From positions 11,554-75,553 of the forward strand of contig DKAT01000049.1 in assembly GCA_002450905.1 (NCBI GenBank): 64,000 nt of DNA, read 5' to 3'. Source of the DNA: Spirochaetia bacterium UBA6919. GTDB lineage: Bacteria > Spirochaetota > UBA6919. The position numbers and the translations under genes are program-made. Positions 54 through 52,962 of the stretch are shown here, one piece after another; within the stretch, counting starts at the first letter, position 1; each line of letters opens with the position of its first letter. The notes under the pieces are model-generated. The model saw only the letters and a list, made by a program, of their open reading frames with translations. It had not been told where the DNA came from and searched no databases.

Positions 54-710
54 ATGAAAGATCAGGATATCCATGATATCATTACAATTTTAAAACAAGC
101 TATTAAAAAATATAAAATTCCAATAGTCACCCAATATGCTTTAAATGAAAGAAATCCTTTCCACATTCTAATCTCAACTATCTTGAGTTTAAGAACTAAG
201 GATCAAACCACTGCAGAAGCATCCCATCGCCTATTATCCCTTGCTGATACTCCTCAAAAAATTGTTAAGCTTGATAAAAATCAAATTGAAAAGCTTATAT
301 ATCCCGTAGGATTCTATCGTGTGAAGGCTGAAATTATCAAAACAATCTGTCAAAGACTTATTGATGAATATAAGTCCATTGTCCCGGATGATCTCGATGA
401 GCTTTTAAAACTAAAAGGGGTTGGAAGAAAGACAGCCAATCTTGTAATTACACTTGGTTATAACAAGCTAGGAATTTGTGTAGATGTCCATGTCCATCGA
501 ATTACTAATCGCTGGGGATATGTTCAAACAAAAAATCCTGATGCCACAGAAAAAGCACTACGTGAAAAATTACCTAAAGAATATTGGATTGAAATCAATG
601 ATATATTGGTAACGTATGGACAAAACCTTTGTTACCCCATTAAACCAGTCTGTAGTCAGTGTTTTATATCTAAATATTGCGATAAAATGGGTGTAACAAA
701 ATTTAGTTAG
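54..710 (+). CDS. nth: Endonuclease III (HhH-GPD base-excision DNA glycosylase with a 4Fe-4S cluster)
   Basis: HhH-GPD motif (LRTKDQTT...[10 protein letters not shown]) and a C-terminal C-X6-C-X2-C-X5-C cluster loop ([17 protein letters not shown]). Typical length of 218 aa. Confidence 0.85.
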
Positions 711-981
711 AACTAGAAACAGGATAAACTGAAATTCGTCTTTTTACAAGACGATTTTGTGTCCTAAACTTCTCGAATTGAACTTGACCAGCAATTTTTG
801 AAAATAAAGTATCATCAGAACCCATACCCACATTAAATCCTGCAAAAAACTTTGTTCCTCTTTGACGTACAAGAATTTCTCCACCCTTAACAACTTCACC
901 TGCAAATTTTTTTACACCAAGCCTCTGGGAATGGCTATCACGACCATTTTTAGAACTACCTCCACCTTTCTTATGTGCCAT
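703..981 (-). CDS. rpmA: 50S ribosomal protein L27
   Basis: N-terminus [10 protein letters not shown] and the FAGxxV...RQRGTKF motif characteristic of L27. It follows rplU on the same strand. Confidence 0.9.
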
Positions 982-991
982 ACCTTACTCC

Positions 992-1309
992 TTAATTCTT
1001 TGAAATATCTTCAATCAAGATCTTTGTAAACTGTTGACGATGTCCGCGCTTCTTACGATAATCTTTACGTCGTTTATACTTAAATACAATAATCTTTTTA
1101 TCTTTCACAAGGGGATCTAAAACCTTTGCCTTCACTTTAATATCTTTTACAAAGGGTAGACCAACATTCACTACTTTATCATCATGATATATTAAGACCT
1201 GATCAAACTCTAAATCACTCCCTTCTTCAGCATCAATTCTGGGAACAAGGATCCAACGTCCTTTCTCTGCTTTATACTGCTTTCCCTGTATCTTCACAAT
1301 AGCGTACAT
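992..1309 (-). CDS. rplU: 50S ribosomal protein L21
   Basis: MYAIVKIQGKQYKAEKG... is a classic L21 N-terminus. The ORF-track start has a double Met, so I take the second ATG. Confidence 0.9.
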   Translation of the reverse strand: MYAIVKIQGKQYKAEKGRWILVPRIDAEEGSDLEFDQVLIYHDDKVVNVGLPFVKDIKVKAKVLDPLVKDKKIIVFKYKRRKDYRKKRGHRQQFTKILIEDISKN

Positions 1310-1465
1310 CACTCCTCCACGGGATTATAATTACAATCAATTAAATTTATTTAAATTAATCATTTTGTCAAGACATTTTTCATACATGTTAGTTAAAAAT
1401 TTATTAATTCCTATAAATTATTTACAATAATCTAAAAGATACATATATGACAAAAAATATCATAT

Positions 1466-1498
1466 ATGGGAGAAAAATGGGAAAATTATGGGAAAACT
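1466..1498. repeat. Three phased direct repeats of ATGGGAAAA with an exact 11-bp period (ATGGG at 1466, 1477, 1488), upstream of rplU
   Basis: Read directly from the sequence. The same motif in reverse complement, with the same 11-bp phasing, recurs at 52143-52175. Confidence 0.6.
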
Positions 1499-1562: not shown

Positions 1563-3059
1563 TCAATTAGATAATCTTCTATTGTCTCTCCACACTGATA
1601 AACCAGATATTGTTAAAAAGATCATTATATTCAAAACAGGCAAAATATTTCTGGAAGATGGAATAGTCATTATAGCGTGTATACCGATATGGACAAAACA
1701 AATAATATATAATATGGAGATCGGTGAAATATATTTAAAATGTTTATATTTCATATACAAAATATAGAATGATAATATAAATCCAACAGACCACAAAGGG
1801 ATGACTCTTGTTAAAGAAATTGTCAGTAGAAATCTTATAAATGCCCCAGGAGATTCAAACGGATTAACAAATTGATTATCCAAATGAGATCTTATATTGT
1901 GGGGGTAGAATTTATGATAGTCAAAGTAATTTAAATTAATACTCTTAGCTTTGATTGTTTGCGCAAATTGTAGTCGTGAAAAACTAGAATAGATAAATAT
2001 TTTATCCTTCGTATGAAATTTATTGGTCGTTTCTAAAGACATAAACAGATTTTTTAATAACATAAAAAATTTATTATAAGAAAATTCAAAAGGATGTGTT
2101 ATGATTCCTTCTACAGCTAATTCCTTACATATTTTAAGATAATTTTCTTTTGTTTTGGCATAATCCATCATTTTTTGATACGGACCATCATCATGAGGAT
2201 AGATCAACCAATCCATGTTGAGCTTGTTAGATGTTCTATATCTTTTAATATAAGGTGCTATTATTTTTTTTATCTCATGATTCTCTTGAGATTTTAAATT
2301 GACGAATTGTCCAGATGTGGCAAATAGCTGACTTGAATCTTGATTAGTTAGTTTAAATTTATTATGATGGTAATAATTAAAAATCAAATGAATGAAAAGA
2401 GGGATAAGAAAAAAAATATAAAACATTAAGGAGCTTAATAATATTCTGTTAATTCTTCTATCCGATTTGTAATAGATAAAAATGGATGCAAGTATCCCAA
2501 TAAATATAAAATAGAGTCCTGTGGGCTTAATTATACTCATAATTCCTGAAAATAACCCAAGGTATATAAAATAATAAATACTCTGTTTCTTTGCAGTATA
2601 CATAATTATCAAAGTGATAAGTCCCATCATAAATGTAAATAAAAGTTCTGGCATAAGAGTCATTTCATAATTTATACTTAAAGTACTTAAGGAAAGGATA
2701 AGAAATAAGATATTTGCAAAATCTTTTGAAGCAGGGAATATCTGTAGAAATATTTTATAATAAATTATCGATAGGCCAATCCCCAATATCATTTGGAATA
2801 CCACAAGAGCTAAAAATTCATGAAATACAAATGCTATTATTGAAAGAACTAGTGGATAGCCTAGAGTTCGAAACGTCTCAAGACTCTTTCCAAATAATAG
2901 AATATTGTGTCCCTCCTGCAAATAAAGTCGGCTATCGACATGTAAAATAATGTAGGGGTATTGGATTATTAAAATAATTCTCGTGAGTACAGCTAAAAAT
3001 AAAATACCCCAAAACAATTTATTGCTTGTTAAAATATCCCTGATATTCATCTTACTCAT
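1563..3059 (-). CDS. Polytopic integral membrane protein, possibly a GT-C-type glycosyltransferase-like protein
   Basis: 498 aa with many hydrophobic segments in the N-terminal half and a soluble C-terminal half. No diagnostic motif recognised. Likely co-transcribed after rpiB-aroE. Confidence 0.45.
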   Translation of the reverse strand: MSKMNIRDILTSNKLFWGILFLAVLTRIILIIQYPYIILHVDSRLYLQEGHNILLFGKSLETFRTLGYPLVLSIIAFVFHEFLALVVFQMILGIGLSIIYYKIFLQIFPASKDFANILFLILSLSTLSINYEMTLMPELLFTFMMGLITLIIMYTAKKQSIYYFIYLGLFSGIMSIIKPTGLYFIFIGILASIFIYYKSDRRINRILLSSLMFYIFFLIPLFIHLIFNYYHHNKFKLTNQDSSQLFATSGQFVNLKSQENHEIKKIIAPYIKRYRTSNKLNMDWLIYPHDDGPYQKMMDYAKTKENYLKICKELAVEGIITHPFEFSYNKFFMLLKNLFMSLETTNKFHTKDKIFIYSSFSRLQFAQTIKAKSINLNYFDYHKFYPHNIRSHLDNQFVNPFESPGAFIRFLLTISLTRVIPLWSVGFILSFYILYMKYKHFKYISPISILYIICFVHIGIHAIMTIPSSRNILPVLNIMIFLTISGLSVWRDNRRLSN

Positions 3060-4378: not shown

Positions 4379-4573
4379 AGAACCTTCCAGAATATTTAAT
4401 ATTTTGAATAAATTAAACATTTTTTTTAATAGAGTCAAGATAATTTAGCACAGAAGAGAATTCAAGTGTAAATGGAATGGGAAACTAATTATATAAACTG
4501 ATTGTTTAGATTTAAGAACTTGAAATAGTTTTATTTTATGATACGGCCCAAGAAACCGTATCATATATATTAT

Positions 4574-7884: not shown

Positions 7885-9044
7885 TATTTACCCATACCAA
7901 CACTTTGTGCTCTTTGGAACGCCTTTCCTTCAGTACGAATACTTGGAGCAACAATCATTTCGCACATTTGCATTTCCCGAATATCTGTTGCACCACAATT
8001 TCCCATAGAGTTTTTAAGAGCTCCCACAAGATTCTGGCTTCCATCATCATATCGTGCTGGTCCTAGTAATATTTCTTTTAGAGTCCCCATCACACCAACA
8101 TGAATACGTGTCCCACGCGGAAGCAGTATACTTGGAGTTGCCATCCCCCAATGATAACCCTTTCCTGGTGCCTCTTCAGATTTAGCAAAGGCTGATCCTA
8201 TCATAACAGCATCAGCACCTGATGCAATAGCTTTACATAAATCTCCACCACCACGCATACCACCATCTGTTATTACTGATATATATTTTCCAGTCTTCTT
8301 ATAATAAAAATCCCTTGCTGCTGCTGCATCGACTGTTGCTGTAATTTGAGGGACACCTATTCCCAAGACTTCCCGAGTAGTGCATGCAGCTCCAGGTCCT
8401 ACACCAATTAAGATCGAATCGATACCTGTTTCCATTAGCTCAAGGGTAGCTTCATAACTTACAGTATTTCCGACGATGATTGGAATATTCATCTCTTTGC
8501 AAAACTTTTTAAAATCCAAGGACTTATATTGACTTGAGATATGTCGAACAGTTGTAACAGTGGATTGAACCACGAAAATATCTACTCCTGCGTCTTTTGC
8601 TATTTTAGAATATTTATCGGCATTTGGAGGTGTTGCTGAGACAGCCGCTTTAACACCAGCTTCCTTAATTTCACGAATACGTTTTGTTATTAATTTCTCT
8701 TTGACGGGTTCTTTGTATATTTCTTGTAATATATTGGTTACAGTCTCTTTAGGAGCTTCAACTATACGATTCAGGTGTTCTTCAGGATATTCGAATTTAG
8801 TTTGCAAGCCTTCGAGATTAAGAACTGCAAGTCCACCCAGCTTTCCCATTTCTATAGCAAAGCGAGTATCGACAACACCATCCATTGCAGATGCAATGAT
8901 AGGTATTTCAAACGTATGCCCTCCTACTTTCCAGGTTACATCAACATCATTCGGATCAATGGTCACCTGTCCTGGTACCAGTGCCACATCATCAAATCCA
9001 TAGGTATAACGTGCTTTTCTACCTCTTCCAATCCAAATACCCAT
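7884..9044 (-). CDS. guaB: IMP dehydrogenase family protein lacking the CBS (Bateman) pair
   Basis: Catalytic-loop motif [11 protein letters not shown] with Cys, and the IMPDH/GMPR TIM-barrel motifs GGMRGGGD and [12 protein letters not shown]. At 386 aa it is about 100 aa shorter than canonical IMPDH. The stop abuts the guaA start. Confidence 0.8.
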
Positions 9045-9388
9045 TTATAAAACTCCTTAATCAGTGATTATTTTTTATATTGGTATGAGTATAAAATACA
9101 AAATTAACAATTTTTCGATAAAATGAAATTGTTATATATGATAATATAATATATTTCCGATGATTTGATCACATGATTTTTAATATTTTTTGTAAATCTT
9201 CTTTAAAGAACAAGTTAATAATAATTTATATAAAACAAAAAATATTAATTTTATTTTATTAGTAAATGGAATGGTTTCAATTATTTATTTACTATGATAA
9301 TCTAACTTAAGAAAAATTATGATTAACTTAATATAGTTAGGTGTTCATATAATGGTAATCACCAGGAAATTAATTTCGAGAGGTGTTT

Positions 9389-10498
9389 ATGAAAAATATT
9401 GCATTAGTACTCGGTGGTGGTGGAATGAGGGGAATGAGCCACATTGGGGTATTAAAAGCTTTACAGAAGAGGAAAATAAAAATAAGTCAATATATAGGAT
9501 GCAGCATAGGTGCACTTATCAGTAGTTTTGCAGCAAGTGGAATTCCTCCCAAGATGATTGAGAAGTTTGCTAAAAGACTGACTAAAGAAGATATCCTTGA
9601 TTTTCATTGCTTTGACATTTTAAGACGTCGGTTAAAAGTCGGTTGGATTTATCGTGGAGAAAGATTATTAGAGTACCTTAAAAAAAATTTACCTGTTCAT
9701 ACCTTTGATGAATTGACTACCCCACTCTATATTAATTCAATTAATCTGAATTCTGGGAACCTTATTTATTGGGGCTTGCCATCATTCAGAGATGTAACAC
9801 TTGCAGAAGCTGTGTACTCATCCTGTGCATATCCTATAGCATTTAAACCAATTAAAATTAAAGATGAATACTATATTGATGCCGGTATCGTTGATAATCT
9901 CCCTATCAAAGTGACTAGATTTACTAAACCTGATTTGATCATAGCTGTCAATCTCAGATACCGAGGCACATTGGAAGGTAAAAAAATTGAAAATCGCGGC
10001 GTTATTTCCGTAATTGATCAAGTAAATTCTATGATGGGACAAGTTATCTCAGAATATAATTATCAAATTCACCGTGATCTTCATGCCATTTTTATCCATC
10101 CTATAGTTAATCAATATAATTTTCTGGATTTTAGCAATATTCAAGCATTAATTGATGAGGGTGAAAGAGCTACTTATGAAATTTTAGATAAGCATCCTCT
10201 TTTTAGTTCGAAAGATAATGGATTTTCCATCTATGATCTCCTTTTCAAAACAAAACCTATTTTTAATGTTGATCACAATAAATGTACTGGATGTGGAAAT
10301 TGTATCATTCAATGCCCTGCCGATCTTTATAAAATAGATAGTCAGAAAGCTGTATATTTAAAATCTCAGAGAGACAAATGTATTGCGTGTTTAGATTGTA
10401 TCAAACAATGTCCTTATAAGGCTATTTCATTATCTGAAGAGAAACAAACCTTTAGCTTTAGTAATATGCAATACCTTCAAAATATTTTAAGGAAATAA
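9389..10498 (+). CDS. Patatin-like phospholipase fused to a C-terminal 2x[4Fe-4S] ferredoxin domain
   Basis: Patatin oxyanion motif GGGGMRG, nucleophile elbow GCSIG (GxSxG), and a DAG(I)VDN catalytic Asp. The C-terminus has two CxxCxxCxxxCP motifs (CTGCGNCIIQCP and CIACLDCIKQCP). Start taken at the ATG 7 nt after GAGAGG. Confidence 0.75.
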   Translation: MKNIALVLGGGGMRGMSHIGVLKALQKRKIKISQYIGCSIGALISSFAASGIPPKMIEKFAKRLTKEDILDFHCFDILRRRLKVGWIYRGERLLEYLKKNLPVHTFDELTTPLYINSINLNSGNLIYWGLPSFRDVTLAEAVYSSCAYPIAFKPIKIKDEYYIDAGIVDNLPIKVTRFTKPDLIIAVNLRYRGTLEGKKIENRGVISVIDQVNSMMGQVISEYNYQIHRDLHAIFIHPIVNQYNFLDFSNIQALIDEGERATYEILDKHPLFSSKDNGFSIYDLLFKTKPIFNVDHNKCTGCGNCIIQCPADLYKIDSQKAVYLKSQRDKCIACLDCIKQCPYKAISLSEEKQTFSFSNMQYLQNILRK

Positions 10499-10502
10499 TT
10501 AT

Positions 10503-11636
10503 TTGATATATAGAAAGTTTGGGAAGACCGGTAAAATGATTTCCCTCCTATCCTTTGGAGGAATGAGAATACCTAGAATCACTGTAAAAGCCTCAATAAA
10601 TGTGATTAAGCGTGCATATGAACTCGGAGTAAACTTCTATGAAACATCTCCTGGATATGGTGATTCAGAACATAAAATAGGATTAGCTTTAAAGGAAATT
10701 GATCGCTCAAAGGTTTTTATATCCACGAAATCTCACCCGGGTACGGATAAAACAGCTTATGAGGTTAGAAAACGGCTTGATGAATCTTTAAAACGGCTTG
10801 ATCTAGAATATGTTGATTTCTATCAAATCTGGGGTATAAATACAAAAGAACACTTTGATATAGTATTTAACAAGGATGGATACTTAGATGGGATTCATCA
10901 GGCAATGAAAGAAGGATTGATTCAACATATTGGATTTACAACCCATGCAGAACCTTCTTTGATACTTGATATTTTAAATACAAATGAATTTGAAACCGTC
11001 ACATTGATTTACCATCTATATCATCAGAAAAATGAAATCCCAATTCAACGCGCTCATGAATTAAATATGGGTGTTGCTGTTATAGCCCCCCTTTCAAATG
11101 GATTTTTAGCCCATCCGACAGAACAAATGATTGATGATTTCATGCCCTATAACGTAAGAGAATATTCACTCCATTGGTTAGCAAATGATCCAAGAATTAC
11201 AACAATAATTTCAGGGATGAAAACCTTTAAGGAACTGGAAGAGAATTATCAATCGATTGTATCTTTCAATTCATTCAGTAAACTACAAATTAAGAAAGCC
11301 TTAGATGTCCATACCAAATTAAGATTACGAATAGGCAATCAGTATTGTCCAGAGTGCAGAGAATGTTTACCTTGTCCTATGAATATCAATATCCCTGAAT
11401 TAATGAGGATTAACAATATATGGAAAGCTTATCACGCTGAATACTATTGCAAAGATCGGTATAAATTTATGGGAAATGGTGGATCATGGTATCCTGGTGT
11501 AAAAGCTAATCATTGTAATGATTGTGGAGAATGTGAACCAAGATGTTCTGAGAATCTAAAAATTGTTTCAATCATAAAATTACTCCATATAGATCTGTAC
11601 ACAGGTGATCGGTCTACAATTAGTAATCATACATAA
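10503..11636 (+). CDS. Aldo/keto reductase with a C-terminal Fe-S (4Fe-4S-type Cys-rich) extension
   Basis: AKR fold motifs (ETSPGYGDSE, HIGFTTH). The C-terminal region has CPECRECLPCP and CNDCGECEPRC cysteine clusters. Confidence 0.75.
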   Translation: MIYRKFGKTGKMISLLSFGGMRIPRITVKASINVIKRAYELGVNFYETSPGYGDSEHKIGLALKEIDRSKVFISTKSHPGTDKTAYEVRKRLDESLKRLDLEYVDFYQIWGINTKEHFDIVFNKDGYLDGIHQAMKEGLIQHIGFTTHAEPSLILDILNTNEFETVTLIYHLYHQKNEIPIQRAHELNMGVAVIAPLSNGFLAHPTEQMIDDFMPYNVREYSLHWLANDPRITTIISGMKTFKELEENYQSIVSFNSFSKLQIKKALDVHTKLRLRIGNQYCPECRECLPCPMNINIPELMRINNIWKAYHAEYYCKDRYKFMGNGGSWYPGVKANHCNDCGECEPRCSENLKIVSIIKLLHIDLYTGDRSTISNHT

Positions 11637-12049
11637 CATAAAATACATTATTAATAAAGTAAAATCAACTGACAAAGTAAATCACTTAACCAGCTCATCA
11701 AGGATATATAACATATATTATTTATTGGATCTATCCCGGCAGTCTTCTTAAATTGAAATCCAAATTGTCAAATTATTCTTAAACTTTCTGAGTTATATCA
11801 AATATGATGATAAATGTGGAGACGAAACACAATCGGAATCAAAATTTTCAGTTCCGATGCTGTTACATCTTATTGCCTTAATGACATATATTTAAAATTT
11901 GTGTATTAATAATGGAGTGATTTTAATTCAAATTATCATAGATTCATTTGGTTATGAAAATAAATATAGACTACTTATTGGTACAAGTTATTAAACTATA
12001 ATGCATTTGATCATGATATCGAAATTAAAATCGTACAACAATTGAATAT

Positions 12050-13465
12050 TTAATAAGTATTCATATACTTAGGAAAATGTAAACAAACAGTTATACCATT
12101 CGAATCATTATTGCTTATATCGATTGCTCCCCCATGTTCCTTCATGATCTTAAGACAAATACTCATACCAAGACCATATCCACCAGTTTTTTTAGAGCGG
12201 GATTTATCAACCCGATAGAATGGTTCAAAAATATAGGGGAGGTCATTCTGAGGAATTCCCTGTCCATAATCTTTTATAAATACTTTTAAATTATTATCGT
12301 CATTTTGCAGGGATATCTCAATGGGATCTGATTGATGTGAAGAGTATCTTAAAGCGTTGTCTAATATGTTTTTGAACACTGTGATGATCCGATCTCTGTC
12401 CAGTGATAGATATAATGAAGCTTCTGAGGTCTGGAGTATAATTCCTGGGGGATTATTATTCATGTTGCTTATGACTTCTTGAATAATTTGTATAATATTC
12501 TGTGATTGAAGATTTAATTGTCCATATTGGCTGTTTAATCGTTCAGTTTCAATGATTTCTGTGACCATTTTTTCCATCTCATTGATATCTTCCTTTAAAT
12601 TCGACTTGATTTTCTGATTGTTTAAAAACTCTAAGGATATTTTCATTCTTGTAATGGGTGACCTTAATTCGTGACTGACATTCAAGAGGAGTTGTTGTTT
12701 TGAGTAGATCATATTTTTAATTTGTTGTGTCATTTTATTGAATGTGAATGTTAAGTTTCCCAGTTCATCTTTGCTTGATATTTTTATTTGATGGTCTAAA
12801 TTACCTGATATGATTTCATTAACTCCTTGATTTATCAATTTGATGGGTTTCAGGATTCGTTTAATAGTAATATAAACGCCTATTAATATAAGAGATAAAA
12901 ATAAAATTAGTATGATTATTCTTGTTTGATCTGGTTCAGCACGGTGACGGGATAGATTTAGCTGGAAGATGAGGTATCCTTCTTCGGCTGGAACGACTTT
13001 AATAAATTGTCTTCTTTTGAAATATGAATTATTGATATTAAAATCCTTAAAAGTATTAATCTCTTTTAAGGTAAATACATTTTTGGATGTACTCCAAGAA
13101 TTTGATTTGCTTTCATAACGGATTTGGATAGAGAGTTCTTTAGATTTTATGAAAGCTTTGTCGAAAGATGGAGGTGATCCCAGATCCCGGATGATATATT
13201 GTACATATTGGTTTAGATTTTTTGATAATATTCCAGTTTGAGCAGATCGGAAGATTGATCGGAAGAACATGATCACCAGGATGTTGATGAGGATCCCCGC
13301 TACGATGATTGATATTAGGAGTTTTAAAAATATTGATTTGCGAAAGGGTGTTTTGTTGTGAATTAGTGAAGATTTTTTTTTAGTTTGGTCAGTCAAGAGT
13401 ATCTCCAATAAATAGATATCCGACACCCCATATTGTTTTGATATATTTAGGATTTTTGGGATCAT
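12050..13465 (-). CDS. Sensor histidine kinase (EnvZ/CpxA-like: periplasmic loop, HAMP, HisKA, HATPase_c)
   Basis: H-box LLLNVSHELRSPITRM, and N/G1/G2 boxes (DNALRYS, IKDYGQGIP, GGYGLGMSI). Two transmembrane segments flank a periplasmic region. The annotated start overlaps the response-regulator gene by 77 nt, so the true start is uncertain. Confidence 0.85.
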   Translation of the reverse strand: MIPKILNISKQYGVSDIYLLEILLTDQTKKKSSLIHNKTPFRKSIFLKLLISIIVAGILINILVIMFFRSIFRSAQTGILSKNLNQYVQYIIRDLGSPPSFDKAFIKSKELSIQIRYESKSNSWSTSKNVFTLKEINTFKDFNINNSYFKRRQFIKVVPAEEGYLIFQLNLSRHRAEPDQTRIIILILFLSLILIGVYITIKRILKPIKLINQGVNEIISGNLDHQIKISSKDELGNLTFTFNKMTQQIKNMIYSKQQLLLNVSHELRSPITRMKISLEFLNNQKIKSNLKEDINEMEKMVTEIIETERLNSQYGQLNLQSQNIIQIIQEVISNMNNNPPGIILQTSEASLYLSLDRDRIITVFKNILDNALRYSSHQSDPIEISLQNDDNNLKVFIKDYGQGIPQNDLPYIFEPFYRVDKSRSKKTGGYGLGMSICLKIMKEHGGAIDISNNDSNGITVCLHFPKYMNTY

Positions 13466-14078
13466 CGTTTAATTTCTGACGTAATCGGCTGATTAATATA
13501 TCGACTGAGCGATTGTATGGATCCCAGTCAATCCCCTTTAGATGATCTACAATTTGATCGCGGTTTAATACCCTGTTGAGATTCTTTGTGAAAAATAATA
13601 AGACCTCATATTCCATAGTGGTTAGATCGATAGGATTATTGTTTAATATGACGAGATGCCTGTTTGTATCAATGGTGAGGGATTTAATTTGAATTTTTTT
13701 GGTTAAGATGTAATGATTTTCCCTGCGAAAGATCGATTGTATACGGGCGACAAGTTCTCTGGGTTCAAAGGGTTTTGGGAGATAATCATCGGCACCCAGT
13801 TCAATACCGACAATTCGATCTGTGACATCTCCTCTGGCTGTGAGCATGATAATTGGTACGGTTGATATTTCCCGAATCATTTTACAGAGTTCGAATCCAT
13901 TGATATCGGGGAGCATAACATCGAGGATGATGAGATCGATTTGATTTGATCTTAATTGATTCAGTCCTTCTTTGGGATGGGTTGTGGATATGACCCGATA
14001 GTTAAATCCTGATAGATATTCTGACAGGAGTTGTATAAGTTTTCTGTCGTCGTCGATAAGCAATATTTGTTTGTTCAT
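13389..14078 (-). CDS. OmpR/PhoB-family response regulator
   Basis: Receiver domain (LLIDDD...DLIILDVMLP...K) plus a C-terminal winged-helix trans_reg_C domain (RLRQKL...IKTIWGVGY). Confidence 0.9.
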   Translation of the reverse strand: MNKQILLIDDDRKLIQLLSEYLSGFNYRVISTTHPKEGLNQLRSNQIDLIILDVMLPDINGFELCKMIREISTVPIIMLTARGDVTDRIVGIELGADDYLPKPFEPRELVARIQSIFRRENHYILTKKIQIKSLTIDTNRHLVILNNNPIDLTTMEYEVLLFFTKNLNRVLNRDQIVDHLKGIDWDPYNRSVDILISRLRQKLNDDPKNPKYIKTIWGVGYLFIGDTLD

Positions 14079-14124
14079 AGAGACTCTGAATCCCCCTGTA
14101 GAAAATCCACAGGAGGAATATAAT

Positions 14125-14631
14125 TTATTTTTTTGAGTGTCTGTTGAGTTTCTTTTCGAGGAAGTTGTATAATTTTTGTTTTTGCTCAGGCTTCAAGACT
14201 TTATGGAACTCATGAGCTTTGTCTATAAGGAATATACGGAATTTTTTAATCTTTTTTTGCTGTGAGTTTATAAGTTTGTTTAATTTTTCTTTGTCTAACT
14301 CATCTTCTTTGACTTGTGAGAGGAGTTCTTTGAAGATTAATTTTCGTGTTCCTCTCATTTCCCTGGATTTCTGGACGATTTCATTTTTTATTTTGTCTAA
14401 AACTTTTTTCTGGTTATCATCGAGTTCTAATTTTTTTGTAATTTTCTTGGAAATCCACTCAGCCCTTTTTTCAATGGGAGCATGGTGATATTTACGATGC
14501 TGGTGCCCAGAACAAGTCCCGATGGATATTAGCACACCAACTACAAGTAGGATGGATGATATCCATAGGATATTTTTTTTAGAAAAAGATTTTTTTGATG
14601 ATATTTTGTTTGAATTTTGATTTTCAATCAT
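14125..14631 (-). CDS. Periplasmic Spy/CpxP-family (LTxxQ-motif) protein
   Basis: Signal/anchor segment, H-rich stretch (GHQHRKYHHAP), and two LTxxQ-like motifs (LELDDNQKKVL, LKPEQKQKL) in a helical K/E-rich protein. Sits immediately upstream of the response regulator and histidine kinase. Confidence 0.6.
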   Translation of the reverse strand: MIENQNSNKISSKKSFSKKNILWISSILLVVGVLISIGTCSGHQHRKYHHAPIEKRAEWISKKITKKLELDDNQKKVLDKIKNEIVQKSREMRGTRKLIFKELLSQVKEDELDKEKLNKLINSQQKKIKKFRIFLIDKAHEFHKVLKPEQKQKLYNFLEKKLNRHSKK

Positions 14632-14741: not shown

Positions 14742-14815
14742 TAGCGGCGCAGGGATTCGAACCCCGGACCTGTGGATTATGATTCCATCGCTCTAACCAG
14801 CTGAGCTACGCCGCC
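14742..14815 (-). tRNA. tRNA-Met (anticodon CAU), elongator type; tRNA-Ile2 (lysidine-CAU) cannot be excluded
   Basis: The reverse complement folds as a cloverleaf: acceptor GGCGGCG, D-arm TAGCTCAGCTGGTTAGAGC, anticodon loop ATCATAA, T-arm GGTTCGAATCC. CCA is not encoded. Confidence 0.8.
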
Positions 14816-14874: not shown

Positions 14875-14948
14875 TAGCGGGGACAGGATTCGAACCTGTG
14901 ATCTTCGGGTTATGAGCCCGACGAGATAACCAACTTCTCCACCCCGCG
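14875..14948 (-). tRNA. Initiator tRNA-fMet (anticodon CAU)
   Basis: The reverse complement, CGCGGGGTGGAGAAGTTGGTTATCTCGTCGGGCTCATAACCCGAAGATCACAGGTTCGAATCCTGTCCCCGC, is nearly identical in architecture to E. coli tRNA-fMet. It has three consecutive G-C pairs in the anticodon stem and an unpaired position 1:72. Confidence 0.88.
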
Positions 14949-34673: not shown

Positions 34674-35708
34674 ATGAATGAGTTATTATCTCAACAAGAA
34701 ATAGATGCTCTGTTAACCGCTATATCTACTGGTGATAGTGATGAAGAACGTGGATCAGAATTACCGTCTGAACCTCAACGCCAGGTGAAGATTTATGATT
34801 TCAAAAGACCTGATAAATTTTCTAAAGACCAAATACGAACTCTACAGATGATGCATGAAGCATTTGCACGGTTGACAACTACTTCTCTATCCGCCCAGTT
34901 AAGAACTCTGGTCCATGTCCATGTAGCATCTGTTGACCAGTTGACCTATGAAGAATTCATCAGAAGTATTCCCAGCCCTACTACTCTGGCTGTAATTAAT
35001 ATGGATCCTTTGAAAGGAAGTAGTATCCTTGAAATTGATCCAAGCATTACATTTACCATAATCGATCGTTTATTTGGCGGTTCTGGTGAAGCAACAAAAA
35101 TGAATCGTGAATTAACCGATATTGAAATGTCTGTAATTGAAGGAATTGTAGTTCGTATACTGGGCAATTTACGAGAATCCTGGAGTAATGTGATTGATTT
35201 ACGTCCAAGACTTGGAAATATAGAAACCAATCCTCAATTCGCCCAAATTGTTCCACCCAATGATATGGTCGTACTCATCACCTTGGAAACTAAAGTGGGT
35301 GATGTGGAAGGAATGACGAATTTTTGTATTCCATACATAACAATTGAACCTATTATATCCAAACTCAGTGCACAATACTGGTATTCAAGTATTCGTAAAG
35401 GCGCTACCAGAGAAAATTTTAACATCCTAAAAGATCGCTTATCTGAAATGTTGGTTGATGTAATAGCTCAACTAGGAAATGTCGAAGTTACAATGCGGGA
35501 TGTTATAGCTCTCCAGGAAGGGGACATAATAAAACTCCCAAGTACTAAAGTTACTGATACTTTAACTCTTAAAGTAGGGAATAAACAGAAGTTTTACTGT
35601 CGTCCGGGTGTAATTGGAAAAAGAATTGCAGTCCAAATTGAACGACCAATTGAAGATGCTGAACAAAATATATTTGATGAATTTGCTGAAGGTGAAGAAA
35701 ATGAATGA
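34674..35708 (+). CDS. fliM: Flagellar motor switch protein FliM
   Basis: N-terminal CheY-P-binding peptide LSQQEIDALL, a CheC-like middle domain, and a C-terminal SpoA/FliN-like domain. Confidence 0.9.
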   Translation: MNELLSQQEIDALLTAISTGDSDEERGSELPSEPQRQVKIYDFKRPDKFSKDQIRTLQMMHEAFARLTTTSLSAQLRTLVHVHVASVDQLTYEEFIRSIPSPTTLAVINMDPLKGSSILEIDPSITFTIIDRLFGGSGEATKMNRELTDIEMSVIEGIVVRILGNLRESWSNVIDLRPRLGNIETNPQFAQIVPPNDMVVLITLETKVGDVEGMTNFCIPYITIEPIISKLSAQYWYSSIRKGATRENFNILKDRLSEMLVDVIAQLGNVEVTMRDVIALQEGDIIKLPSTKVTDTLTLKVGNKQKFYCRPGVIGKRIAVQIERPIEDAEQNIFDEFAEGEENE

Positions 35709-49457: not shown

Positions 49458-51206
49458 ATGGATAAAATTCTTGGAATCGATCTAGGTACGACTAATTCAG
49501 TCATGGCGGTTGTTGAAAATGGAAAACCAATTATAATCCATAATAAAAAAGGTGATCGCCTTACCCCTTCTGTTGTTGCATTCACAAAGAATAATGAAAT
49601 TCTGGTAGGAAAACCTGCAAAAAATCAGAGTATACTCAATTCTGAAAAAACTATTTCTTCCGTAAAAAGGAATATGGGGACCACTCAAAAATATCAAATT
49701 GGTAAGAATACATATACCCCTCAGGAGATTTCTGCAAAAATCCTCCATAAAATCAAAGAAGATGCGGAAGATTATTTTGGAACAGAAATTTCAAAAGCAG
49801 TCATCACCGTTCCTGCATATTTTAATGACAATCAAAGACAAGCAACTAAGGAAGCTGGACGTATAGCAGGATTTGATGTTCTGAGAATTATCAATGAGCC
49901 CACAGCCGCCGCCCTCGCTTATGGAATCAATGATCATGAAAACCAGGTAATACTAATCTATGATCTGGGCGGAGGGACATTTGATGTATCCATTCTGGAA
50001 ATAGGGGAGGGGGTGTTTGAAGTCAAAGCGACCACTGGAAATAATCATTTAGGTGGTGATGATTTTGATGCAAAGCTAATGAATTATGTTCTGAAAAAAT
50101 ATAAGGAACAAAACAACATAGATCTAACCAAAGATATCATGGCTTGTCAGAAACTCAAAGAAGAAATTGAAAAAGTCAAAATTGAACTCTCAGAAATAGA
50201 ATCCGTTGATCTGAATATTCCATTTATTTCAGCAGATGAAAAAGGTCCAAGACATTTAAATATAAATATAAACAGGCAATTATTTGAAGAACTGATTCAG
50301 GAATATATCGAAGAAACGATCTATCTCATGGAAAAATGTTTAAAAGATAGCAAATTAGAAAAAAATGATATTGACAAGGTTCTTCTTGTAGGTGGTTCTA
50401 CTCGTATTCCATTGGTTTATAATTCTGTTGAAAAAGCATTATCAAAAAAAATATCAAAAGGGGTCAACCCCGATGAATGTGTAGCACTGGGTGCTGCTAT
50501 ACAGGCTTCGATTTTAAGTGGTGAAAAAAAGGGGATGGTGCTTGTTGATGTTACTCCTCTCTCAATGGGAATAGAAATCGAAGGAGGTGTTTTTGTCCCT
50601 ATAATTGAAAGAAATTCAACGATACCTATTACGAAAAGTAAATTATTTACAACGATATCTGATTATCAGCAAAGTGTTGAAATCCGTGTATATCAGGGTG
50701 AAAGAGTCCGCTGTGTGGATAATATATCCCTGGGTGAATGCCAATTAAAAAATATTAGACCAGCCAAAAAAGGTCTCCCTCGAATTGAAGTAAATTTTGT
50801 CATTGATGTCAATGGGATCTTACAAGTCAGCGCTAAAGATCTAGATAGTGGAAATATGCAGAAAGTAATCATAAAAAATCCCACCAGCCTCTCGGATGAG
50901 AAAATACAAAATATTATTGAAAATGCCAAAAAAAATAAACACACGGATCAGGAAGTATTAAAAATTGAGCAAATAAAACAATTGTTTGATACAAGTTATC
51001 AGCGTTTAAAACTATTATATGAAGATAAAATAAATATAATTGATGCGAATTTAAAGAAGGATATACAGACAGCCCTCAAGAAATCCGAAAAAAAAATTAA
51101 AAGACCAAAATCTGATGAACTGGTTGATTTAATAGATCAAATGGATTTTCTCTACGAAGAATTAAAAATAAGTTATTCCAATGACAGAGAAGGGGTAGAA
51201 GTTTGA
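49458..51206 (+). CDS. Hsp70-family chaperone paralogue (HscC-like), not a canonical DnaK
   Basis: Actin-like NBD motifs (IDLGTTNS, DLGGGTFDVS, a second phosphate motif VGGSTRIP) and an SBD-beta. Lid is short; 582 aa total; C-terminus ...REGVEV. There is no grpE/hrcA context. Confidence 0.85.
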   Translation: MDKILGIDLGTTNSVMAVVENGKPIIIHNKKGDRLTPSVVAFTKNNEILVGKPAKNQSILNSEKTISSVKRNMGTTQKYQIGKNTYTPQEISAKILHKIKEDAEDYFGTEISKAVITVPAYFNDNQRQATKEAGRIAGFDVLRIINEPTAAALAYGINDHENQVILIYDLGGGTFDVSILEIGEGVFEVKATTGNNHLGGDDFDAKLMNYVLKKYKEQNNIDLTKDIMACQKLKEEIEKVKIELSEIESVDLNIPFISADEKGPRHLNININRQLFEELIQEYIEETIYLMEKCLKDSKLEKNDIDKVLLVGGSTRIPLVYNSVEKALSKKISKGVNPDECVALGAAIQASILSGEKKGMVLVDVTPLSMGIEIEGGVFVPIIERNSTIPITKSKLFTTISDYQQSVEIRVYQGERVRCVDNISLGECQLKNIRPAKKGLPRIEVNFVIDVNGILQVSAKDLDSGNMQKVIIKNPTSLSDEKIQNIIENAKKNKHTDQEVLKIEQIKQLFDTSYQRLKLLYEDKINIIDANLKKDIQTALKKSEKKIKRPKSDELVDLIDQMDFLYEELKISYSNDREGVEV

Positions 51207-52078
51207 TGACTAAACATCATGATGAAAATTATTATAAAGTGTTGGGAATTGAGTACCACGCAACGGACAATGATATAAAGAGTGCGTATAGGCGATTAAT
51301 GTTACAATACCATCCTGATGTTTCAAAGGAGCCAGTCCGTGTTGATAACTTTGAGAGGGTAGTCAGAGCTTATAAAGTCCTCAGTGATTCTAAAAAACGG
51401 GCTGAATATAATCGAATAAATAATATTAATGCATTTCGATTTACAAACCATTCATACACTGGATTCAAGGAAACTCATGTCAAGGAATTTCCTGAAGAAA
51501 AACCAATCAAATCAAGTGTATTTAGTTCATTCACAGATCGATTTTTTAATAGGAACCCAGAAGAAAAAATATCAGACGAACTTAATAATGCATTTCACGT
51601 CTCAGATGATATTATAAAACTGGATATAGAAGACCTTATCAATCAATATGAAATCAGTACAAATAAATTTGTCAGGATAGAATCATTAAAAGCTATTGTA
51701 AAAAAATTGGGAAAAATGAGTTATAAAATAATAGAAAATGCCTTAGAGGATACAAGTAAAGAGGTTAGAGAGGTTGCTATTAAGGCAATTGGATTACTAC
51801 AAATCAGACAGGGAATCTATTCCCTTGAAAAGTTATATAAAGAAAGCAGTACGGATGTTAAAAAATCGATAGTAATATCAGTAGCTAACTTGCAATTTCA
51901 AAAAAGTAATGATCTTTTATTGAAGTTTTGTTATGATTACAATGATGATATAAAATTGATAGCTTTAAAGGCAGTTCAGCAATATAAATTAAAAAATGTA
52001 TCGCTATTAAAAGGCTTGCTGCACGATAAAAACCCGTCCATAAAACAGTTAGTCCAAAATATCCTTAAAAATAGCTAA
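51203..52078 (+). CDS. J-domain protein with C-terminal HEAT/PBS-lyase-like repeats (DjlC-like partner of the Hsp70 paralogue)
   Basis: J-domain YYKVLGIEYHATDNDIKSAYRRLMLQYHPD with the HPD tripeptide. There is no G/F or Zn-finger region. C-terminal repeats KEVREVAIKAIGLL and DIKLIALKAVQQY. Start overlaps the Hsp70 stop (ATGA). Confidence 0.8.
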   Translation: MMTKHHDENYYKVLGIEYHATDNDIKSAYRRLMLQYHPDVSKEPVRVDNFERVVRAYKVLSDSKKRAEYNRINNINAFRFTNHSYTGFKETHVKEFPEEKPIKSSVFSSFTDRFFNRNPEEKISDELNNAFHVSDDIIKLDIEDLINQYEISTNKFVRIESLKAIVKKLGKMSYKIIENALEDTSKEVREVAIKAIGLLQIRQGIYSLEKLYKESSTDVKKSIVISVANLQFQKSNDLLLKFCYDYNDDIKLIALKAVQQYKLKNVSLLKGLLHDKNPSIKQLVQNILKNS

Positions 52079-52142
52079 CTTGTGCATTTTATAAAAAAGT
52101 ATGGTTGATTTATGGTGAAATAGCTTTAAACTTTATAATACT

Positions 52143-52175
52143 TTTCCCATGATTTTCCCATACCTTTCCCATGTT
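52143..52175. repeat. Three phased direct repeats of TTTCCCAT(G/A) with an exact 11-bp period (CCCAT at 52146, 52157, 52168)
   Basis: Reverse complement of the 1466-1498 repeat with identical phasing. Lies between the convergent J-protein gene and the 52303-52962 gene. Confidence 0.6.
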
Positions 52176-52302
52176 TATAAAGGATGTTATTTGTTTGAAA
52201 TTATATTGAAAAAACATTATAACAAGATTTAAATGTGGATTACAGAAACCTTCTAAAAGATGAATGCAAATAACAAATCTGATGAGAATTATTTTAGGTT
52301 TG

Positions 52303-52962
52303 TTATTCTAATTTACGCCACATTTTTAGACGATTATCCCAATATGTAGGGTTTAGATGTTTAAATCGAGGTTTTGATTGGTTTTTCTGATTGTCAAGGT
52401 GAGTTTTATAGAGATTTGAAAGGCGATTAATTTCCTCCATTTGTATGTTTGTAGGTTCAGGATTTTTATATGATTTTGCAGTATCTAATTGAATCAAAGC
52501 ATCTTGATATTTTTGATTCCTTCCAAGATTTTTTGCTTCCGAGATTAAATCATTGATCTTTTGTAGTTGTTTGTATTTTTTTAATAATTCGTTAATTTCT
52601 TTTTGTTGTTCAGGTGTGAGATTTTGACTATTTTCTTCAGCACCTGGCTCGCTTGATTTACCAAGATTTTTTGCTTCATTTAATTTTTTTATGGCTTGTT
52701 TATATTCTCCTTTATCTCCAAGTTCTTTTGCTTCCTGGATTAGTTCATCTACTTTATTTTTATTTTCTTTGTTATTATTTGGCTTGTCATCCTTAATTAC
52801 TTTCTCTTTTTTAATTTCAGGTTTTTTTGTTTCATTTCCAGAACAATTCATAATGAATACGCTTAGGAGAAATATATTAAACACAGTTATTATTACTTTC
52901 ATAACACATCCATCATTTATTATATGTATAATAAATATAACACGTAATTTTAAAAAAATCAA
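52303..52962 (-). CDS. Secreted or lipoprotein with internal helical repeats (…EAKNLG…); true start probably the Met at 52902
   Basis: Leader MKVIITVFNIFLLSVFIMNCSG, then a K/E-rich region containing two similar ~40-aa repeats (ELIQEAKELGDKGEYKQAIKKLNEAKNLGK and DLISEAKNLGRNQKYQDALIQLDTAKSY). Confidence 0.5.
   Translation of the reverse strand: MIFLKLRVIFIIHIINDGCVMKVIITVFNIFLLSVFIMNCSGNETKKPEIKKEKVIKDDKPNNNKENKNKVDELIQEAKELGDKGEYKQAIKKLNEAKNLGKSSEPGAEENSQNLTPEQQKEINELLKKYKQLQKINDLISEAKNLGRNQKYQDALIQLDTAKSYKNPEPTNIQMEEINRLSNLYKTHLDNQKNQSKPRFKHLNPTYWDNRLKMWRKLE

Follow-up and report, generated by a model that had tools for sequence, protein, structure and literature searches.

Genomic setting of two phased triple repeats

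The window, by which we mean the whole 64,000-nucleotide stretch of DNA analyzed here, comes from an uncultured host and has a G+C content of 33%; for one of its proteins, the best-named relative carries a Spirochaetota annotation. It contains two intergenic arrays, lying 50 kb apart and inverted relative to each other, in which a short sequence is directly repeated three times (Table 1). The first array (site 1) reads ATGGGAGAAAA ATGGGAAAATT ATGGGAAAA on the plus strand, or TTTTCCCATAA TTTTCCCATTT TTCTCCCAT on the minus strand, the one on which rplU is encoded. The second (site 2) reads TTTTCCCATGA TTTTCCCATAC CTTTCCCAT on the plus strand. Units begin at positions 1496, 1485 and 1474 of the minus strand at site 1 and at positions 52142, 52153 and 52164 at site 2, which gives each array a period of exactly 11 bp. 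An earlier note on this DNA had described three copies of ATGGGA(A/G)AA with exact 11-bp spacing, the first at 1466, and a second triple in the opposite orientation at 52143-52175. Both are present, the first needing small coordinate corrections (1466-1496) and the second lying at 52142-52172. The same note had placed site 1 about 155-185 bp upstream of the L21 start, in good agreement with the 157-187 bp that we measured before the ATG at 1309. The sequence of site 1 is identical in an independent metagenome contig (L002) and that of site 2 in contigs from two samples (L445 and L446); contigs from two other samples show 100% identity across site 1 and site 2.

Table 1. Positions of the two repeat arrays and of the genes and sequence features discussed in the text.
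Feature	Coordinates	Strand	Description	Basis
Site 1	1466..1496	-	Three direct repeats, TTTTCCCAT(AA) TTTTCCCAT(TT) TTCTCCCAT	Read directly; pattern search; any-motif scan; unit alignment
Site 2	52142..52172	+	Three direct repeats, TTTTCCCAT(GA) TTTTCCCAT(AC) CTTTCCCAT	Pattern search; any-motif scan; unit alignment
PMT_2-like gene	1563..3059	-	Membrane protein, 498 aa	ORF list; weak Pfam match to PMT_2 glycosyltransferase
rplU	992-1312	-	Likely ATG at 1309; downstream of site 1	Pfam Ribosomal_L21p
rpmA	703-981	-	Downstream of site 1	Pfam L27
DnaJ-HEAT gene	51203..52078	+	290 aa; last gene of a 31-kb co-directional run
Lipoprotein gene	52303..52962	-	Converges on site 2; stop codon 130 nt from the repeat
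OmpR-type regulator gene	13389-14078	-	Response_reg + Trans_reg_C; encoded with its kinase	Pfam
Likely rplU promoter	1344..1371	-	TTGACA-16-TAAATT	Consensus scan; function inferred
Weak promoter-like match, site 1	1424..1453	-	TTGTCA-18-TATTGT; starts 12 bp past the last repeat
Weak promoter-like match, site 2	52195..52223	+	TTGAAA-17-TATAAC; 22 bp past the last repeat; speculative	Read by eye
AU-rich hairpin	1442..1468	-	11 pairs, CAUAUAUGAUA / UGUCAUAUAUG	RNA fold of 1421-1570, z = -2.4

The PMT_2-like gene is the last of an rpiB-aroE-PMT_2 run, and its TGA stop codon (1565-1563) precedes site 1 by 66 nt, with gene and repeat pointing the same way. Site 2 occupies a 224-bp gap in which two genes converge; the start codons nearest to it are 790-940 bp away, and the TAA stop codon of the DnaJ-HEAT gene (52076-52078) precedes it by 63 nt, again with gene and repeat in one orientation. 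Read as TTTTCCCAT, both arrays are found 63-66 nt past the stop codon of a run-terminal, co-oriented gene. This position after the ends of co-oriented gene runs, at nearly equal distances, is the only feature of context common to both sites. It is suggestive but weak, because an element in a convergent gap is always co-oriented with one of the two genes and site 1 had an even chance of being so.

The earlier note had tied the element to rplU-rpmA and to translation or growth-rate genes in general. This association did not hold up, given the location of site 2 between convergent genes and far from start codons. The link to rplU itself also weakened on inspection: 94 bp lie between site 1 and the downstream -35 hexamer of the likely rplU promoter, and a relative (L137) has a similar promoter before its own rplU (TTGACA-17-TATATT) with no repeat.

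The gene run that ends at site 2 (20898-52078) extends from flgB to flhA/F/G, fliA and FapA, followed by a pair of genes encoding a DnaK-like protein (582 aa) and the DnaJ-HEAT protein (290 aa). Over the window as a whole, GC skew turns from negative to positive at about 8000-12000, with a cumulative minimum near 10-12 kb, and stays positive over the minus-strand genes at 12-18 kb. The change at about 8000-12000 could mark a replication origin, in which case both repeat sites would point away from it; neither dnaA nor dnaN was seen in the window.

The two arrays are not explained by chance

When the 64-kb window was searched for ATGGGA-N5-ATGGGA with at most one mismatch, four matches were found against 0.55 expected, a number reached in none of 100 shuffles, and all four fall inside the two triples. 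No further degenerate pairs appeared in the 64-kb window when the pair pattern was relaxed to three mismatches, and an additional 9.3 kb that extends this genome leftward (L001) had no copy either; the contigs recovered on the right fall within the window, so that the search covered 64 kb plus 9.3 kb of this genome. We also scanned for exact phased triples of any 6-mer, defined as three occurrences of a 6-mer with at least three different bases at a fixed period of 7 to 30 bp. Whatever the motif and the period, sites 1 and 2 were the only such loci in the window. Simulation of 200 windows with a second-order Markov model gave a mean of 0.32 phased-triple loci per window, an expectation that does not demand that one motif and one period occur twice. 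The two triples are a non-random, real phased direct-repeat array, far beyond chance.

The single unit behaves differently. In the 64-kb window the 9-mer occurs 48 times with at most one mismatch, against 48.25 expected, and is not enriched. The lone ATGGGAAAC near rpiB (4477-4485), counted by the earlier note as a copy of the element, therefore carries no statistical weight and is a chance occurrence. A separate periodicity, four AATTG motifs with a 12-bp period at 35612-35660, lies inside the fliM/fliY coding region and is probably a coding-level periodicity.

A conserved core and a free spacer

In an alignment of the six 11-nt units, positions 2 and 4-9 were invariant and positions 1 and 3 differed once each, whereas the spacer dinucleotides at positions 10-11 were different in all six. 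Positions 10-11 account for 6 of the 8 departures from the consensus (P about 0.008, corrected for the choice of pair). A nearly invariant 9-nt core combined with a free 2-nt spacer points to selection on a recognized sequence and not to recent slippage, which would have yielded identical 11-mers. Beyond the repeat the two sites share no homology: in a pairwise alignment of 300 nt around each, identity was limited to the 31-33 nt of the repeat. The flanks are thus non-homologous, and the sites are not copies of a larger mobile element.

These observations bear most directly on the possibility that the array is a short dispersed or slippage-born 11-bp mini-repeat, neutral or selfish, with no dedicated function. 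We consider this unlikely, though with two copies it keeps some probability; it fits the contrast between core and spacer poorly. The divergence of the spacers but not of the cores is the opposite of what recent slippage predicts, transposed copies should have left flank homology, and it is very unlikely that the same 9-mer, period and copy number arose independently twice within 64 kb. The observations that favor a mini-repeat come from other genomes, considered in the following two sections.

The element is absent from three distant relatives at the matching places

Three relatives could be compared at matching places, all of them distant (38-65% protein identity). In L137, where L21 is 65% identical and the synteny of rplU-rpmA-nth-carD is kept, there is no repeat upstream of rplU. 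No repeat is found in L443 (50% identity) downstream of the DnaK-like/DnaJ-HEAT pair, nor in L448 (38% identity) downstream of the only PMT_2 homologue found. The nearest relative, whose L21 is 73% identical, is represented by 1-kb contigs that end 43 nt before rplU. As far as can be seen, the element appears to be limited to the species or genus of the host, and that it was not kept in the relatives that could be read is one of the observations in favor of a mini-repeat.

The DnaK-like/DnaJ-HEAT pair itself is shared with L443, a relative within the Spirochaetota. Another contig taken up as a relative (L447) was set aside on finding that it belongs to an unrelated lineage. In L137 a HEAT gene lies upstream of rplU; the idea that an inversion connects it with the DnaJ-HEAT gene of the window was discarded, as the two showed only generic HEAT-repeat similarity.

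Phased 11-bp arrays are widespread in other genomes

A search of viral contigs for TCCCAT-N5 repeated three times returned 48 loci. With a stricter triple, at least 86 loci from many phyla were found in genome contigs, and with a still stricter one at least 120 loci in metagenome contigs, the latter dominated by a GGTTTTCCCAT minisatellite of sample Ga0126342. However, in the viral contigs two control cores matched in composition and spacing were found at 63 and at least 120 loci. Because the control cores are equally or more frequent, 11-bp phased triples are generic and the TTTTCCCAT-type core is not special among them; for the same reason a cross-phylum TCCCAT family was dropped. Both the performance of the controls and the wide occurrence of 11-bp tandem arrays of the same unit in unrelated genomes, also as minisatellites, count in favor of the mini-repeat.

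Many of the matches elsewhere are longer arrays, often with an inverted copy at the end, and some are dispersed with conserved flanks (Bacteroidales, Cloacimonas). Clustering of the genes around the viral and genome-contig arrays revealed no common gene family, with phage replication or packaging genes near some groups only, and a literature search by motif sequence returned primer noise only. The arrays found elsewhere are unrelated to the two sites studied here.

Several of these arrays are nonetheless worth recording. The Bacteroidales MAG Red_deer_4_mag_203 carries a dispersed intergenic element in at least 10 copies (L056, L081, L090, L098, L099, L103, L109, L119, L125, L126), located in tandem, convergent and divergent gaps. 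Its left flank is conserved (cggtgaaacttcggtg...tttttgtgatc) and leads into four or five GATCTTCCCAT units with an 11-bp period, after which comes an inverted copy, ATGGGAAG. A second family, CCCATAGGATTCCCATACCATTCCCATAGGATTCCCAT with a conserved right flank, was found in three other Bacteroidales MAGs. In two Candidatus Cloacimonas MAGs (L084, L093) and also in L057, three or four TTCCCATATCG units are followed by a palindrome-forming inverted copy, ATATCGCGATATGGGAA; the Cloacimonas array sits at the same place in two species, 37 nt past a 298-aa ORF. The GGTTTTCCCAT tandem arrays (L140-L259, mostly Ga0126342) contain from 3 to more than 10 units on dozens of contigs of about 40% G+C, and have the look of a minisatellite spread through the genome of a single organism, which may be a eukaryote. 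Viral 11-bp arrays (contigs L003-L050) often lie beside genes for primase/helicase, DnaB-like helicase or large terminase, or at contig ends, and are consistent with origin or packaging-site iterons.

Promoter-like and hairpin features near the sites

A promoter-like match follows each array (Table 1), but such matches occurred at chance frequency in the consensus scan (8 found against 7.3 expected). The match at site 2 was missed by the scan because the last base of its second hexamer is not T; it is one helical turn farther from the repeat than its counterpart at site 1, and no annotated gene follows it. The AU-rich hairpin at 1442..1468 starts within the last site 1 repeat, and UAUCUUUU follows it. 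In this folding model it could be a weak terminator; nothing equivalent is present at site 2. Upstream of site 2, on the other hand, a degenerate inverted partner (gtATGGttgatttATGGtGAAAtag, 52099-52123), in which ATGG likewise recurs 11 nt apart and which is preceded by AAAAAA, can base-pair with boxes one and two. The long, imperfect hairpin so formed would lie in the gap where the two genes converge; site 1 has no such partner. Small ORFs starting from the ATGs of the repeat were rejected on reading the sequence: they fall in three frames, lack a ribosome-binding site and encode peptides that differ past the repeat.

A candidate site for a direct-repeat binding protein

The best explanation we can offer, and one we hold tentatively, is that the array is a cis site, restricted to this lineage, on which a sequence-specific DNA-binding protein sits as three head-to-tail subunits, with the hexamer-N5-hexamer arrangement of OmpR/PhoB-type sites. 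Both triples would be cis-acting DNA sites for one such protein of the host lineage, with three subunits, or a dimer plus one more, seated head-to-tail on the three 9-bp TTTTCCCAT boxes. Since the boxes are one helical turn apart, all three would be contacted on one face of the helix. The repeats, their exact phasing and non-random nature, the contrast between core and spacer, and their positions are observed; the binding, the nature of the binder and its output we infer. To our knowledge, the core (TTTTCCCAT/ATGGGAAAA) matches no known box.

If this is correct, the sites would mark the ends of gene runs and not one class of promoter, and the most likely output would be control of transcription across a gene-run boundary. 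The bound protein might act in either of two ways: it might stop transcription from running on into rplU-rpmA or into the lipoprotein gene that converges on site 2, or it might help the weak promoter 12 or 22 bp downstream. Against an operator stand the small number of sites, two only, the convergent setting of site 2, the 94 bp between site 1 and the -35 hexamer of the likely rplU promoter, the chance frequency of the nearby promoter-like matches and the lack of the repeat in the three distant relatives. An odd number of half-sites is also unusual for dimeric regulators and counts against it as well. The earlier note had proposed either a same-face site for an oligomeric regulator or a small dispersed element. 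In this generic form the proposal is supported by the 11-bp period, the equal copy number and the conserved core, whereas its rplU-type framing and the rpiB copy fell away.

A regulator of the OmpR type is encoded in the window, in an operon (12050-14631, minus strand) that also specifies a CpxP-like LTXXQ protein and a HAMP histidine kinase and is adjoined by tRNA genes at 14742-14815 and 14875-14948. It is the only winged-helix regulator recognized among the scanned window proteins. Its presence shows that the class exists in the host and is not evidence for that protein as the binder; a pair search of the window placed no copy of the repeat before this operon.

Explanations at the RNA level

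Alternatively, the repeat may act in the transcript. As an RNA element at operon 3' ends, three copies of the C-rich, G-free UUUUCCCAU would be bound by Rho or by another ring-shaped or multimeric RNA-binding protein that ends or stabilizes the upstream transcript. The post-stop position of both sites fits this idea, as do the composition of the repeats (10-11 C and 0-1 G in 31 nt) and a terminator scan that predicted no canonical intrinsic terminator on the relevant strands. At site 1, moreover, the repeat is predicted to be unpaired and to be followed by the AU-rich hairpin. The spacing of C residues also resembles that used in models of Rho sites, where the RhoTermPredict rule asks for six C residues at intervals of 11-13 nt in a 78-nt window whose C/G ratio exceeds 1 (PMC6407284). 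Yet none of the 48 78-nt windows at each site was positive by RhoTermPredict-like criteria, and the C/G ratio was just 2.0-2.4, roughly the 90th-95th percentile. The first two boxes of site 2 are predicted to pair with upstream sequence, and the co-oriented context is weak evidence. Rho has little sequence specificity, so that neither the exact period nor the constancy of the AT that follows CCC would be accounted for. The RNA folds of the two sites have no common structure, and Rfam, at the gathering score, recognized only two tRNAs in the window, while in permissive scans of both site regions no family came near its threshold. The failure of the Rho criteria together with the lack of an RNA family match weakens explanations at the RNA level, and we regard this one as quite unlikely, though it comes second among the functional readings.

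A related idea, which we judge improbable, is that the array is a dedicated operon-boundary signal. A sequence-specific factor acting as a DNA roadblock or as a ring-shaped RNA-binding terminator would read three 9-nt boxes spaced 11 nt, about 65 nt past the last stop codon, and halt transcription into the next unit, namely rplU-rpmA at site 1 and the convergent gene at site 2. Were it true, a spirochaete-like lineage about which little is known would have a novel type of termination or insulation specified by sequence.

Remaining alternatives

The purine-strand core, (A)TGGGA in three copies, recalls the sites of MraZ, an open-ring regulator of the SpoVT/AbrB fold that binds three or four direct repeats cooperatively, and a site of this type would place one subunit on each TGGGA-like box. 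E. coli MraZ boxes are TGGGN with 5-nt spacers and do resemble the purine-strand TGGGA. In B. subtilis, however, MraZ binds three GTGG[A/T]G boxes with 4-nt spacers (6 + 4 = 10 bp), one subunit per box, so that the period of 11 bp seen here differs; the boxes of Mollicutes have a 10-bp period too, and M. genitalium has four GTG(T/G) boxes. MraZ boxes belong to the mraZ/dcw promoter, in which the triple is usually unique in a genome. The window contains no dcw genes, and the neighbors of the arrays are the PMT_2-like gene and rplU at one site and the DnaJ-HEAT and lipoprotein genes at the other. A MraZ-type site is accordingly very doubtful.

We find it just as hard to believe that the arrays are simply intrinsically bent DNA, with three T4 tracts in helical phase producing a static bend whose role would be structural, for instance in activating a promoter from upstream or in marking a place in the nucleoid. 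T-tracts do recur at an 11-bp period at both sites, but curvature has no need of an invariant CCCAT, and at 33% G+C T-tracts are everywhere, yet there are only two phased-triple loci. Finally, the inverted orientation of the sites would suit paired recombination sites around an invertible 50.6-kb segment, but this is extremely improbable. Housekeeping and flagellar genes fill the segment, and the sign of the GC skew switches near 10-12 kb, away from the sites. In contigs from two samples each site is spanned in a single orientation, site 1 and site 2 have different spacers, and no recombinase gene was noticed in the annotated part of the window.

Significance and comparison with known systems

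Taken together, the element is most likely an operator-like candidate protein-binding site of known architecture, with a core unmatched to any described. With two copies in the window and no conservation in the relatives compared, it is a lead and not a result. If a protein does bind, the array would be a clean and highly specific operator (a 9-bp core in three copies with an 11-bp phase) for an uncultured, poorly sampled, spirochaete-like lineage. Given a full genome, the boxes could then serve to isolate the regulator and to define its regulon. That the arrays lie where gene runs end, among them the 31-kb flagellar run, hints at control of read-through instead of classic promoter control, and control of that kind would be less ordinary.

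Among known systems, the iteron arrays of phages and plasmids share with the element an 11-bp period and at least three direct copies. Unlike them, the sites have no phage, plasmid, replication-initiator or partition genes nearby and lie in a chromosomal housekeeping and flagellar context; unlike the phage arrays, they have only three copies and no terminal inverted copy. Copies of REP or MITE-like dispersed repeats share flanks or terminal inverted repeats beyond the core, which sites 1 and 2 do not. MraZ triples typically occur once per genome, against two sites in 64 kb here. Rut sites are similar in being C-rich and G-poor, in their post-stop position and in a C-cluster spacing of about 11-13 nt, but the element has three C clusters and not six, and strict conservation over 9 nt is not expected for Rho.

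The operators of OmpR/PhoB-type regulators (ArcA, and the PhoB, PhoP, WalR and PmrA boxes) differ in that site 2 has no annotated promoter or start codon within 790 bp. In other respects they correspond well: they present a short core in direct orientation at 10-11 bp, with every box on one helical face, as both sites do, and they join a conserved core to a free or A/T-rich spacer, as the six units do. For ArcA, a member of this family, the operator comprises three direct repeats spaced 11 bp from center to center, and lengthening the spacing by a single base pair is enough to abolish binding at the third (PMC4173790).
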